DNA from: an uncultured Eubacteriales bacterium
GTDB lineage: Bacteria > Bacillota > Clostridia > TANB77 > CAG-508
Direction: 5' to 3'
Length of the DNA: 33,474 nucleotides
Assembly: GCA_963529075.1 (NCBI GenBank)
Contig: CAURYI010000002.1
Location: forward strand, 1-33,474
The notes under the pieces: model-generated
Seen by the model: the letters and a program-made list of their open reading frames with translations, nothing else
What the model was told of the DNA's origin: nothing
Databases searched by the model: none
Shown here: piece after piece, positions 8,288 to 18,272 of the stretch
How positions within the stretch are numbered: the first letter of the stretch is position 1
How the letters are laid out: each line of letters opens with the position of its first letter
Position numbers and translations under genes: made by a program

Positions 8288-8806
8288 TTAACCATTGACA
8301 TTAACAATTCCAGAAGATTGAGCAGTTATACTAGCATTCCCCTTGCCCGTTACTTTGTACATAAAGTTCTTCAAAACTTGTGAAATTGTTTTATTTGTAT
8401 TTTTAACTTCTACAGAAACCATATCACCTTGTTTCAATCTGTATACTCCGCTTTGACCTAAAGCACCTTGGATTTGATCATTATATTCTTTATAATAATA
8501 ATTTTCACCAACTTTTGTTGAAGCTGCTGTTGTTGTCTTTTTAGATGCTGATTCATCCAATACTTGTACTTGCATATCAACATTATAAGAATTTCCTGTA
8601 GCACCAACTGCTTTTACGAAACTATCATATTTATCACTTGTTATTTTTCCAGTAGATCTAATATTATCAACAAACTCCTGTGTTTTTGCTTTAACTACTT
8701 GTTGTGAAACATCATCAGTTCTATCAGCTGTTGACATTAATGGAAAAATGAACATTAAAACTGCTGCTAAAAATATAGCTCCAACTGTCATTAATGTATC
8801 GTTCAT
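8288..8806 (-). CDS. Pilin-like / minor-pilin-like protein P5 (short N-tail plus hydrophobic helix, Tad-like locus)
   Basis: 172 aa. N-terminus MNDTLMTVGAIFLAAVLMFIFPLM, AAGGAGG RBS, and a 24-nt gap from P4. The N-terminus diverges from P1-P4, so the assignment rests on position and architecture. Confidence 0.5.
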   Translation of the reverse strand: MNDTLMTVGAIFLAAVLMFIFPLMSTADRTDDVSQQVVKAKTQEFVDNIRSTGKITSDKYDSFVKAVGATGNSYNVDMQVQVLDESASKKTTTAASTKVGENYYYKEYNDQIQGALGQSGVYRLKQGDMVSVEVKNTNKTISQVLKNFMYKVTGKGNASITAQSSGIVNVNG

Positions 8807-8830
8807 ATAGTCCTCCTTATTTAAAATATT

Positions 8831-9742
8831 TTATTCTCTAATATAAATGTATTGAACAATCCTTTTTGTTTTGTCCTTAGTATTCTCTAAAAATCCTACA
8901 ACACGATTATTTTCATCAGTAAATTTATCAACAGAACCACTTAAAGAAGCTCCTCTATATTCACCATACTTTATATCACTGCCACTTGAAGCAGAATCAC
9001 TATAAATTGTATTTGTAGCAACCACTGTTGCTGAATAATTATATTGTCCAATTCTTTCTACAAATCTTGCTTTAGAATCAATCAATGATGTATTTAATGT
9101 ATAATATGCTCCAGACAGTGAAGTACTGTTATATGCTGCACCAATAATCATAGTATTATTATTAAATCTTTTATTTAATTCAGGATGTTTTAAAACAATC
9201 CTTGACATTGAATATTTCTGCATTACATCATCATTAATATTAATATGCAAGCCATTTACAATATCTCTAATAAAATTCATTGCAAACTGCCTATTATGAC
9301 TCCAAGGCTCCTGTCTTGCCATTTCATCATCCAAATCCAATCCATAAACATATCTATTTCCATCAATCAAATTTGAATTCTGTAATTTACTATCAAGTGC
9401 CTCCGTTGCATACAAAGGCAATGGCTTCATATCATAAATTTTACCTTCATCATTCATTCTTGCAGAATAAAATAAAATTGTAACTCCTTCATCATAATAA
9501 GAATACATCATAGGAATTACCGTATCAACTCCAACAATTTTATTTGAAGTAATATTAAGCTTTTTTCCATTATATTCTATATTATCAACATCATAAAAAG
9601 TTCTTCCATTATCAAGTTTACTCATTGTTTTCTTAGAAACACTTTGAACTTTTGAAAAAGAAAATATAGCTAAACTTAAAGCCATTACAAATAGTAAAAT
9701 AGCACTTGCCATTTTTAACGCATCAGATGCATTCTCGCTCAT
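8831..9742 (-). CDS. Pilin-like protein P4 (large, 303 aa)
   Basis: N-terminus MSENASDALKMASAILLFVMALSLAIF shares the EN-x-S-x-AL-x-[IM]-A motif with P1-P3. AGGAG RBS, 23 nt after P3. Confidence 0.55.
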   Translation of the reverse strand: MSENASDALKMASAILLFVMALSLAIFSFSKVQSVSKKTMSKLDNGRTFYDVDNIEYNGKKLNITSNKIVGVDTVIPMMYSYYDEGVTILFYSARMNDEGKIYDMKPLPLYATEALDSKLQNSNLIDGNRYVYGLDLDDEMARQEPWSHNRQFAMNFIRDIVNGLHININDDVMQKYSMSRIVLKHPELNKRFNNNTMIIGAAYNSTSLSGAYYTLNTSLIDSKARFVERIGQYNYSATVVATNTIYSDSASSGSDIKYGEYRGASLSGSVDKFTDENNRVVGFLENTKDKTKRIVQYIYIRE

Positions 9743-9765
9743 CCATATCTCCTACTTGTATAAAA

Positions 9766-10227
9766 TTATTTTGAGTTTGTTTTAATAACGATAATTCTTA
9801 TATAACCATTTCTATAATATGAAGCATCTGTTTCACCAAATGAATCTTCAATTGGATCATCGCTTTGTTTTGTATTATCTAATTTTACTGTATATGTCTT
9901 TCCATTTAAAATTTTAACAGATGATAAATTTGGTTGTGCAGCACCATCTAATACGATACCAACAACTGTATTTTCTCCCTTTGTTTTTGCTGTTAAATTA
10001 TTTGTATTAACAAGTGAAATTAATTGTTTAACATCAGATGCTGTAGCATTCTCTCCTATAAACTCTTGATATCTTTCATTATTAGCCATAGCTGCTTGTG
10101 AATCTACATTTCCTGATCCTTTAATTACTTTTTGAGCATTTTGAAATATTGTAACACCCAAACCAATTATTAAAATAGAAATTAAAATAGCACCTGCAAT
10201 AATTAAAGCTTTTGATGAATTCTCCAT
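9766..10227 (-). CDS. Pilin-like protein P3 (candidate major subunit, 153 aa)
   Basis: The internal ATG at 10227 is preceded by AAGGAGG and gives MENSSKALIIAGAILISILIIGLGVTIF, aligning with P1/P2. The track ORF's 28-aa extension (to 10311) overlaps the predicted promoter and has no RBS. Confidence 0.6.
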   Translation of the reverse strand: MENSSKALIIAGAILISILIIGLGVTIFQNAQKVIKGSGNVDSQAAMANNERYQEFIGENATASDVKQLISLVNTNNLTAKTKGENTVVGIVLDGAAQPNLSSVKILNGKTYTVKLDNTKQSDDPIEDSFGETDASYYRNGYIRIIVIKTNSK

Positions 10228-16458: not shown

Positions 16459-16471
16459 TATAATATCCTTC

Positions 16472-17146
16472 CTATATTCTCTTTATAATTCTATTAGTAT
16501 CAATTGTACTATCAGCAATTATATTAACTAAATATTCTAACCATTGTTTATAATCTTTAGAAAAAGATTTAAACGTAATTTGTTTGCTAAATTGATTTTT
16601 CAAAATAGCTCTTCTATCAACATCTAGATCACTAAATTCAATTCTGCTATTACTCCATTTAATATTAGAGTTTACAACTTTTGAATTAAGTAATTTATCT
16701 TCCGCATCATTCATATTAGTTGTAGAAATAACTTTTACAACTTCAATAGGCATCTGAACAAATCTTAAAAGTTCTGCGCCCTTTAACATATCATATTGTT
16801 CATATGAAGTTACAAAAAATATTTTTTTCATTCCTTGAATTCCAAACGAATTCATTGTTTGTGGATTATCAGAATCAATTAAAATATAATCATAATTCAA
16901 ATTTATTCTTAAATATTGTGCAATATCATTTAATGTCATAAAACCTAAAGCAACGTCAATCTTTGCATATTCACTAACATATGCAAAACTTTGATTTGTA
17001 CTAATATTTGGAACAACATATCTCATTCTTTGAACAGATGTTGCATCCACAATCAAAACAGATTTACCAGCATTAGTAAGAACTGTTGCCACATTAATTA
17101 ACAAATCTTTTTTATCATAAGCCCCTAAAAATCCTATTTGTTCCAA
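16472..17146 (-). CDS. ParA/MinD-fold protein with degenerate P-loop (TadZ/CpaE-like), copy 1
   Basis: 224 aa with a TTG start. IGFLGAYDKKDLLINVATVLTNAGKSVLIVDAT has no GK[ST]. Walker-B-like YDYILIDSD. Confidence 0.5.
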   Translation of the reverse strand: MEQIGFLGAYDKKDLLINVATVLTNAGKSVLIVDATSVQRMRYVVPNISTNQSFAYVSEYAKIDVALGFMTLNDIAQYLRINLNYDYILIDSDNPQTMNSFGIQGMKKIFFVTSYEQYDMLKGAELLRFVQMPIEVVKVISTTNMNDAEDKLLNSKVVNSNIKWSNSRIEFSDLDVDRRAILKNQFSKQITFKSFSKDYKQWLEYLVNIIADSTIDTNRIIKRI

Positions 17147-17204
17147 ATTAACTTCCCGTTTAAAATATTTAGGTTTTTAAATGGAACCTATAAACCATTT
17201 TATT

Positions 17205-18272
17205 TTATTTTCCGTCCAATATTTGTTTTCTTAAATTAACTTGAGTATTAACTTCAGATGTTGTTCCAGCAGATACTTGCGAATTAATTGTTGTTTGATC
17301 CGTACCAGCATATGAACCGTCAATTTGTTTTCTAAACTCAGAACTTGTTTGATATAATTCAACTAATGCAGCTTTAGCTTTAGCTAATTGGTTTGGATCT
17401 TTATTAATTACTCTTAAAGCATCTTCAGATGGAATATATGTACTCTTTGAAGCTTTTTGTAATCCTGGATCAGTATATTTATTTATATAAATTTTACTAC
17501 CTTGAATTTTATAAGAATCTATAATCGCAGCACTCATTACTAAAATTTCTGTCTCATTTAAGTTTAAAGAAACTGTTGAGTAAGATTGATTTCCACCAGA
17601 TTGCGGTACTTTAACTTTTTTCTTAGATAAAACAACATAATCCGCACCATTTGGTAATCTTAATCTAACATCAACTGTATCATCAGTCTTTAAATCAGAT
17701 GGTAAAGCAATCATATTATACTCTTGCTCTCTTAAATCATTGGTAGCTTGTTCACTAATTACAGTAACCATATCAGGTATAATTGGTGTACCTTTTCCTA
17801 AAGAAATTTTAGCAACATATGTAGATTCTCCAAAAGCAACTTTTACAGCTTGACCATTATACATATAAGTATAATCACCATTTGCATCCTGTGTTAAAGG
17901 ATACTGTTGTCCATTAACTGTTATAGCTTTTGTTCCATCCGATAATGTTGTAATTTCATTTCCATTCAAATCTGCAACCATAAATCTGTTAAATTTTGAT
18001 ACAGAATCAACAGAACCATTTGGTGCCATTGCAGCATCAACTTTTAATGTTGTGAACATATTACTTGTTAATATTTCTCCAGATGTAACATTTTTCTTTA
18101 AAACTAAAACAGTTTTTTGAGAAGCAACTCTTTTCTTTTCTTCAGTTATTTTATTAAATAATTGCAATGCTAAAAACGCTATTATTAATATCCCTATCAA
18201 TAATGCAATAAAAAATCCTTTTATAAATGATGCTCTCGCTTTTCTCTCCAATGGATTCATTGTAGATGCCAT
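17205..18272 (-). CDS. CpaB/RcpC-like pilus assembly protein (N-terminal TM, SAF-like and beta-clip regions)
   Basis: 355 aa with an AGGAGG RBS. TM FFIALLIGILIIAFLALQLF. VLVLKKNVTSGEILTSNMF (SAF-like) and DDTVDVRLRLPNGADYVVL (RcpC-like) resemble CpaB. It is the first gene of the locus. Confidence 0.55.
   Translation of the reverse strand: MASTMNPLERKARASFIKGFFIALLIGILIIAFLALQLFNKITEEKKRVASQKTVLVLKKNVTSGEILTSNMFTTLKVDAAMAPNGSVDSVSKFNRFMVADLNGNEITTLSDGTKAITVNGQQYPLTQDANGDYTYMYNGQAVKVAFGESTYVAKISLGKGTPIIPDMVTVISEQATNDLREQEYNMIALPSDLKTDDTVDVRLRLPNGADYVVLSKKKVKVPQSGGNQSYSTVSLNLNETEILVMSAAIIDSYKIQGSKIYINKYTDPGLQKASKSTYIPSEDALRVINKDPNQLAKAKAALVELYQTSSEFRKQIDGSYAGTDQTTINSQVSAGTTSEVNTQVNLRKQILDGK

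Follow-up and report, generated by a model that had tools for sequence, protein, structure and literature searches.

We analysed a stretch of 33,474 nucleotides from an uncultured Eubacteriales bacterium of the TANB77 lineage (assembly GCA_963529075.1, contig CAURYI010000002.1, positions 1 to 33,474; hereafter the window), and in particular an array of ten open reading frames (ORFs), all co-directional on the minus strand, at 8288-18272. The array is probably the version, carried by a single species, of a Tad-like (type IVc-like) cluster conserved across the gut order TANB77, encoding a type IV filament machine of a monoderm bacterium. Its first five genes, G1 to G5, are homologous to Tad components, gene order in the cluster is conserved, and the pilin-like products of G6 to G9 display the conservation pattern of type IV pilins. 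The ten genes had been recognised in a preliminary description of the window, which read them as an unusual type IV filament locus of Tad-like type in a low-GC Gram-positive (Bacillota) genome; all ten genes are present, and the component matches agree with this identification. It had also proposed a distinct, undescribed subtype, a claim that falls because the same cluster, with the same part-by-part assignments, has been published for TANB77 (PMC11680825). The locus is a Tad-like variant that is already known and has been annotated computationally, with hardly any experimental work on it.

The published study (Nat Commun 2024;15:10726) reported that 122 of 129 TANB77 species conserve a run of 10-14 genes, and annotated proteins 927-938 of HRGM_Genome_2725 by AlphaFold2 and Foldseek (PMC11680825). 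In that genome, 927 is a CpaB protein of 358 amino acids (aa), 928 a TadZ protein of 231 aa, 929 a CpaE protein of 280 aa, 930 a TadA/CpaF protein of 640 aa with one transmembrane (TM) helix, and 931 a TadC/TadB-like fusion of 693 aa, while 938, of 621 aa, is partly TadE/PilV-like in structure and was used in immunology experiments (PMC11680825). TANB77 abundance, and one cluster protein, were linked to the response to checkpoint immunotherapy (PMC11680825). The cluster was stated to be exclusive to TANB77, and neither a prepilin peptidase nor an N-terminal motif was mentioned (PMC11680825). The window shares the order of the machinery genes, with products of 355, 224, 279, 635 and 693 aa against 358, 231, 280, 640 and 693 aa in the published genome. 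In both loci there follow several pilin-like genes with one TM helix and a conserved protein gene, 937 (about 175 aa) there and G10 (172 aa) here. Three differences were found: the family of the 621-aa "pilin 938" is unmatched anywhere in the 33 kb of the window, the window has no counterpart of the MKK-type 143-aa gene 934, and one of its pilin-like genes, G6, is frameshifted.

Homology of G1-G5 to Tad components

The presence of each family was followed with iterated hidden Markov models (HMMs) built from the window proteins, over a set of 86 loci consisting of 80 related genomes (one per species) and six contigs of the same species. Of these loci, 84-86 contained the individual G1-G5 families and 76 contained G10, without any change in gene order. 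Such recurrence, in 76-86 of 86 loci, means that the arrangement is not due to chance. Searches with curated profiles were much less informative: Pfam, NCBIfam and PHROGs gave no assignment for eight of the ten array proteins, PHROGs yielded nothing meaningful, and the only Pfam match above its cut-off was that of the ATPase (T2SSE), the CpaB model and the SAF domain remaining under threshold. Single-sequence searches of the PDB returned CpaF for the ATPase as the sole match. For profile-profile comparison, family alignments were built from the related loci and aligned by hhalign with Tad proteins that served as references and came from annotated loci on plasmids of Rhizobium, Photobacterium, Burkholderia, Thermoanaerobacterium and C. 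botulinum (pCB111). Mismatched pairs, used as controls, gave P=0.4-0.7.

G4 (13697-15604, minus strand; counterpart of 930) is a CpaF/TadA-type assembly ATPase of 635 aa made of an N-terminal TM helix, an extension of about 260 aa and the catalytic domain. It scored 31.8 bits against PF00437 (T2SSE, cut-off 24.9), and its family profile retrieved CpaF from the PDB at E=1.2e-24, FlaI at 5.6e-12 and VirB11 at 1e-7. Ranked by bits against solved structures, CpaF (90) was followed by FlaI (48), PilT (41), archaeal GspE2 (39), GspE (35), VirB11 (34 and 30) and PilB (32). The Walker A motif reads GEQGTGKTT, and G382 and K383 of this motif, E450 and H476 are invariant in the family. The assignment to the CpaF/TadA family and the membrane anchor, both made in the preliminary description, are supported. 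CpaF being nearest by profile score (90 bits against 30-34), a VirB11 identity, which that description had considered as an alternative, is ruled out. NCBIfam models of the TadA type were the top matches of G4, yet with scores far under their cut-offs, indicating that G4 belongs to a divergent subfamily; the ComGA model gave E=2.7e-5. The top BLAST match among the six reference ATPases compared was that of pCB111 (104 bits). When homologues were counted in a library of representatives at 50% identity, 365 clusters reached E<=1e-30 and only 1377 reached E<=0.001, the latter number suggesting a distinct subfamily. Most of the best matches were near full length, and many started within the first ~10 residues. 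Copies of the ATPase at least 98% identical were abundant and came from one prevalent species, and dozens of metagenome contigs, up to ~1 Mb long, carry the exact G4 sequence in unchanged synteny. The N-terminal TM helix is present in the window ATPase and in that of Paenibacillus sp. KN14-4R. Two plasmid ATPases (L087:8962-10794, 610 aa, and L088:8941-10728, 595 aa) are annotated without it; the anchor may not be universal in the family, or the start codons of the plasmid genes may have been miscalled.

G1 (17205-18272, minus strand; counterpart of 927) is a CpaB/RcpC-like protein of 355 aa with an N-terminal TM anchor (helix at 20-38) and an SAF-like domain. Its family profile aligned with the CpaB references over residues 8-282 (hhalign Prob 96.5, P=7.9e-10), as the preliminary description of this gene had anticipated. 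The matches to TIGR03177 (E=1.7e-6) and SAF (E=0.004) were both under the model cut-offs.

A ParA-like domain occurs twice in the locus, in the two genes that had been described as ParA/MinD-fold genes, and these comparisons support that description. G2 (16472-17146, minus strand; counterpart of 928) is a short MinD/ParA-fold protein of 224 aa, whose family profile matched MinD in the PDB (4v02, E=3.6e-6) and, more weakly, NifH, Soj, ParA and Wzc. Its P-loop is shortened and degenerate (GAYDKK); the family keeps only a shortened G-x-x-D-K-T loop, of which G8 and K12 alone are invariant. The G2 family aligned with the TadZ references at P=0.0066 and with the G3 family at P=0.0011. G3 (15619-16458, minus strand; counterpart of 929), of 279 aa, resembles the ATPase domain of TadZ/CpaE: its family aligned with TadZ at Prob 92.1 and P=6.3e-7, over the C-terminal ParA-like domain of the reference (152-389 of 409), and it matched the ParA-family structure 3ea0 at E=0.014. 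Neither G2 nor G3 has a receiver-like domain, which in TadZ is N-terminal, and the consensus of the G3 family lacks the conserved P-loop lysine. Since the P-loop is shortened in G2 and its lysine lost in G3, both proteins are probably non-catalytic scaffolds.

G5 (11601-13682, minus strand; counterpart of 931) is the putative inner-membrane platform, a protein of 693 aa with about seven hydrophobic segments and two TadB/TadC-like units of the type II secretion system F (T2SS-F) type. Its N-terminal half (3-335) aligned with the whole TadB/TadC profile (10 sequences) at Prob 97.2 and P=2.9e-11, and its C-terminal half (391-689) with the same whole profile at Prob 61 and P=7.9e-5. No internal duplication was detectable by direct comparison of the two halves (P=0.18), none of the 44 G5 homologues scanned matched Pfam T2SSF, and the family HMM matched no PDB sequence. 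Because each half aligns end to end with an entire TadB/TadC protein, a TadB-TadC fusion appears a simpler reading than a FlaJ-like protein. The earlier view of a fused platform with two T2SS-F-like halves is supported as to the two units and not as to an "archaeal-style" character, the halves matching the bacterial TadB/TadC references with which they were compared. An AlphaFold2 model computed from a 111-sequence alignment was all-helical and confident (pLDDT 88.4, pTM 0.81); the single-sequence model (pLDDT 36) was unusable. Homologues of G5 occur in many named species of Paenibacillus, Cohnella, Cytobacillus and Tumebacillus.

Pilin-like subunits and their candidate leader motif

The five products encoded downstream of G5 start, as had been noticed, with a short polar N-terminus followed by a hydrophobic helix of about 20 aa. 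G6-G9 are paralogues of a single family, represented about four times per locus (74-80 loci). Among 334 distinct pilin-like N-termini, 175 fitted a single pattern, in which positions 1 to 8 were M (100%), E (93%), N (100%), A (98%), S (86%), K (94%), A (100%) and L (99%), followed by I or L, I or M, A (96%) and G (80%) at positions 9 to 12, and then by the hydrophobic helix. Distant carriers have recognisable versions of this motif: MGNAQKAL in Paenibacillus, MSTNASKAL on the Thermobacillus plasmid and MGENARKAL on C. botulinum p12/29. The N-terminal 25 residues of the family are almost invariant, and the globular parts are recognisable in only 11-43 loci. Such a conserved N-terminal helix attached to a variable body is the hallmark pattern of type IV pilins.

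Prepilin processing calls for G, A or S at position -1; archaeal peptidases depend critically on a charged residue at -2, whereas in archaea Glu at +5 is not required, and the sites listed include RA/LS and KG/QV (PMC4371748). Lys6-Ala7/Leu8 of the motif, with a charged residue at -2 and Ala at -1, fits this class III signal-peptide rule and offers a candidate cleavage motif. The statement that the pilin-like proteins have no recognisable cleavage motif is not supported, since they share a near-invariant MENASKA-L. No N-methyl motif (G/FTLxE) was present in any array subunit, and neither Pfam nor NCBIfam gave a Flp or TadE match in the pilin-like proteins.

Three of the genes are of class 1. 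G6 (MENSSLALKIAGG..., 11060-11582, minus strand) is split by a frameshift into a front ORF (11178-11582, 134 aa) and a remainder (11060-11224, 54 aa), as revealed by alignment with the intact genes of loci L003 and L006, where the product has 173 aa. The frameshift consists of one extra T (TGGTCACGG in the window versus TGGCACGG in L003:14023-14544). It was seen directly in L001, and the gene calls of L002, L004 and L005 give the same 134-aa product; the split gene looks like a pseudogene or truncation of a strain lineage. G7 (MENTSKALIMAGE..., 10403-11044, minus strand), of 213 aa, begins with the motif and has its TM helix at 7-25. G8 (MENSSKALIIAGAILISILIIGLGV..., 9766-10227, minus strand), of 153 aa, is the candidate major subunit. 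Its coordinates follow the gene calls of metagenome contigs, and translation most likely starts at the internal MENSSKAL rather than at 10311. In the alignment of its family the N-terminal helix is conserved and the C-terminal part varies, and the family profile matched nothing in the PDB. G9 (MSENASDALKMASA..., 8831-9742, minus strand) is a larger pilin-like protein of 303 aa with a variant motif and a TM helix at 11-29, whose family was found in 79 loci after one HMM iteration. G10 (MNDTLMTVGAIFLAAVLMFIFPL..., 8288-8806, minus strand; counterpart of 937), a conserved protein of 172 aa, forms a family separate from G6-G9 and may be a minor subunit of the TadE/F type. The N-termini of G10 and of the 938 family differ from MENASKA-L, with a helix ending in F/Y-P (as in G10) or L-P.

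The 938 family is the family of large proteins that follows G10 in about 60 related loci (59-60, median 537 aa). Comparison of window 7187-8288 with L012:17903-19861 and L026:17439-19094 showed that it is absent from the window. The window's nearest relatives, L008-L011 and L013, also gave no 938-family match, though some of these loci end at a contig edge. Some prevalent strains, the window included, are devoid of 938 and carry a frameshifted minor pilin gene, which matters should pilin content be used as a biomarker.

Gaps between array genes measure 13-58 nt, with the exception of 175 nt between the seventh and the eighth. A hairpin resembling an intrinsic terminator (11-bp stem followed by a T-run) lies between G7 and G8 at 10376-10401 on the minus strand, and a second one (12-bp stem, then a T-run) closes the array at 8240-8269 on the same strand. 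Since hairpin terminators stand after genes 7 and 10, the array is not a single uninterrupted operon, and gene 8, which follows the first hairpin, probably has its own promoter. The preliminary description had given each gene its own ribosome-binding site (RBS); GGAGG-like sites do precede most of the genes, the strongest (AAGGAGG) being that of G8. A promoter region of its own, a terminator and a strong RBS are what would be expected for a major structural subunit. They argue against a pseudopilus machine, in which a short piston-like fibre would move DNA or proteins across the thick wall in the manner of Com or T2SS pseudopili, as does the absence of ComEA/ComEC-type or secreted-substrate genes from the window and the conserved neighbourhood. 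Such a machine would account for the many paralogous minor-pilin-like genes and the lack of a clear single abundant pilin of the Flp type; Tad pili have been reported to mediate DNA uptake in Micrococcus, and TANB77 genomes appear small, contigs of ~1 Mb carrying the locus. We consider this explanation improbable.

Several results weigh against a Tad-like filament machine. The family has no observed filament and no genetically studied member. The pilin-like proteins matched no known pilin family or solved structure, and the comparisons with TadE/TadF/TadG references by hhalign were not significant against TadE, either for G10 (P=0.083) or for the N-terminus of the 938 family (P=0.046). The matches of G2 to TadZ and of the C-terminal half of G5 to TadB/TadC are modest. 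Foldseek comparison of the confident G5 model with the PDB found nothing at E<=0.001; the PDB may lack a full-length Tad platform for this model to match. The platform assignment accordingly rests on the profile-profile result and on the published comparison with the AlphaFold DB. Finally, no Peptidase_A24 match was found among the window ORFs, in line with the preliminary description, which had seen no A24 aspartyl peptidase in the 33 kb; none turned up in about 80 related loci, covered to 6-10 kb from the cluster, or among the annotated genes of 116 kb of plasmid pTHECO01.

Neither a Pfam scan of 17 candidate polytopic proteins representing the families within 6 kb of the cluster nor a TadV HMM run over all the loci collected detected an A24 peptidase. 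A transglutaminase-core protein (7187-8194) was rejected as a substitute, being near the cluster in only 14 loci and having a catalytic domain predicted to be extracellular. Two lysine- and asparagine-rich ORFs (27975-28853 and 4296-5243) are not candidates because neither is polytopic. The simplest expectation is a peptidase acting in trans, for instance of the ComC type, encoded elsewhere. A sharply conserved, archaeal-style leader without a linked peptidase poses a concrete question of maturation.

The failure to find a peptidase in the regions searched, and the lack of any sequence or PDB match by HMM for the pilin-like proteins and G5, would also agree with a transporter or some other machine accompanied by ordinary signal-anchored or secreted small proteins. 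This we hold to be very improbable indeed: five independent components match Tad parts in canonical order, and the conservation of the N-terminal helix is too extreme for ordinary signal peptides.

Distribution and genomic setting

The 80 related loci come nearly all from uncultured Clostridia of gut or rumen (Clostridium sp. CAG:389, CAG:575 and CAG:1219, Candidatus Merdicola), and include two cultured Bacilli, Tumebacillus lacus DT12 and Paenibacillus sp. KN14-4R. The cluster is complete, with the ENASKAL-type motif, G10 and the 938 family, on the chromosome of Paenibacillus sp. KN14-4R (NZ_CP197466.1; L083:7258-16403) and in Tumebacillus lacus (L078). On plasmid pTHECO01 of Thermobacillus composti KWC4 (L087:6349-15397) the genes G1-G5 are likewise joined by an ENASKAL-type pilin gene, G10 and the 938 family, and on C. 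botulinum p12/29 (L088:7245-15655) all of these but G2 were matched. The occurrence of the complete cluster in Paenibacillus, in Tumebacillus and on a Thermobacillus plasmid contradicts the published exclusivity, which holds for TANB77 only at high sequence identity and not for the system. What is new here is the complete architecture on chromosomes of cultured Paenibacillus and Tumebacillus and on plasmids of Thermobacillus and, but for a G2 match, of C. botulinum. Because the complete set is found in cultured Paenibacillaceae and Alicyclobacillaceae and on several plasmids, genetics can be used to test whether filaments form, how the pilins are processed and what the system does.

This distribution raises the question of whether the cluster is a Bacillota-wide, separately evolving branch on the Tad/archaeal side of the type IV filament superfamily, characterised by a fused platform, a mostly anchored ATPase, twin ParA-like scaffolds with degenerate P-loops and class III (ENASKA/L) pilins, which an unlinked and perhaps unconventional peptidase would process, if they are processed at all. 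We regard such a branch as a tentative and rather unlikely reading. If it were true, the branch would represent a missing intermediate for the origin of Tad pili from archaeal pili, and one open to study in cultured Paenibacillus, Tumebacillus or Thermobacillus.

The plasmid copies raise the idea of another origin, that of a mating or aggregation apparatus of mobile elements, a plasmid accessory module that would promote contact between cells for conjugation and was later domesticated in the TANB77 chromosome. A tblastn search of plasmids detected ATPases with 37-56% identity in Thermobacillus composti, Sporosarcina, Paenibacillus lautus, Lysinibacillus, C. botulinum and C. beijerinckii; for the Sporosarcina, Lysinibacillus and P. 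lautus plasmids the ATPase alone was compared. The pTHECO01 cluster lies about 17 kb from Tcp-type conjugation genes and adjoins a gene for a replication-relaxation protein, and the p12/29 cluster contains a cell-wall hydrolase gene. However, the neighbours of the window cluster and of its counterparts at about 80 chromosomal loci are housekeeping genes, and no relaxase, coupling protein or VirB4 was found among them. The GC content of the array (0.23-0.34) equals that of its flanks, and 95% of TANB77 species keep a single copy of the cluster (PMC11680825). The genes that follow the plasmid copies point to adhesion rather than mating: a GGDEF-domain gene on both pTHECO01 (NC_019898.1, 54-80 kb; L087/L090) and p12/29 (NZ_KT897275.1, 28-43 kb; L088), and on pTHECO01 also HD-domain, SLH and giant (7 kb) FN3 surface-protein genes. 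Taken together, these observations make a mobile mating apparatus quite unlikely. The earlier characterisation of the locus as chromosomal and free of mobility genes remains correct for the lineage of the window and does not extend to other Bacillota, in which homologous clusters reside on large plasmids. The plasmid context favours, in a way that is only suggestive, a role in surface adhesion or aggregation, and the GGDEF and surface-protein neighbours suggest that adhesion could be linked to cyclic di-GMP (c-di-GMP).

Other genes near the array were also noted. The transglutaminase-core protein, membrane-anchored and of 335 aa, lies directly downstream of G10. An N-terminally anchored protein of about 346 aa is found downstream of the cluster in 45 related loci (for example L015:19716-20756) and resembles the sporulation protease SpoIVB, with a PDZ-like region, by eye only; no copy was seen among the window ORFs. 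The two lysine- and asparagine-rich ORFs encode proteins of 292 aa, with one central TM helix, and 315 aa, with a weak match to DUF5038, and neither was assigned to any family.

The proposed machine and known systems

From these components we infer how a Tad-like machine could work. The conserved N-terminal helix would take the pilin-like proteins into the membrane, and their seven-residue leader, MENASKA, would probably be removed by a prepilin-type peptidase whose gene lies elsewhere, with the cut falling after Ala7 and before Leu8. The fused TadB-TadC platform G5, driven by the hexameric, membrane-anchored, CpaF-like ATPase G4, would pull the subunits out of the membrane and assemble them into a helical fibre. 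The catalytically degenerate G2 and G3 may act as TadZ-like scaffolds positioning the machine, and the membrane-anchored, CpaB-like G1 may form a conduit through the wall. G8 is likely to be the major subunit, with G6, G7, G9 and G10 as minor or tip subunits. The likely function would be adhesion or host contact in the gut.

Known systems resemble this machine to different extents. Conjugative type IV secretion systems (T4SS) combine a VirB11-type ATPase with VirB4, a coupling protein and a relaxase, and the window contains no T4SS genes; readings of the locus as a VirB11/T4SS or as a SpoIIIA-like system were rejected on the component matches. The Com pseudopilus and type IVa pili use a PilB/ComGA-type ATPase and G/FTLxE pilins, and the window fits neither (PilB 32 bits). 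With the archaeal Epd, Aap and Ups pili and the archaellum the window shares a leader that fits the class III rule, with no Glu at +5 (compare the archaeal site RA/LS), and FlaI is the second-best solved relative of its ATPase, at 48 bits against 90 for CpaF. Its CpaB and TadZ-like accessory proteins are bacterial, unlike those systems.

The Tad-like loci of other Bacillota, such as Thermoanaerobacterium pTHETHE01 and C. botulinum pCB111, share with the window a Gram-positive host, an SAF/CpaB-like gene, a T2SS-E family ATPase and small N-terminally hydrophobic proteins. They differ in having two separate genes of ~280-310 aa flanking or following the ATPase, of which only one, on pTHETHE01, is annotated as T2SS-F. 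Their ATPases are shorter (~410-470 aa), and their pilin-like N-termini have Gly at -1 (KKGG-LSQLL, NPAG-MISVE), whereas the window has Ala.

The canonical Tad/Flp systems (Caulobacter Cpa, Aggregatibacter Tad) have separate TadB and TadC, which are fused in one protein in the window, and a TadZ with a receiver-like domain, instead of which the window has two short paralogues with degenerate P-loops. The TM anchor and ~260-aa extension of the window ATPase set it apart from its canonical counterpart, and the locus has no TadV and, the host being monoderm, no secretin. Canonical Flp pilins of about 60 aa carry the G/xxxxEY motif (ERGVTAIEY, ERGVSALEY), whereas the window subunits have 130-300 aa and MENASKA-L. 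In spite of these differences, the CpaF/TadA ATPase, CpaB/RcpC, a ParA-like protein of TadZ type and the TadB/TadC units are shared, and the order CpaB, TadZ, TadA, TadB/C of the Tad reference loci resembles that of the window.

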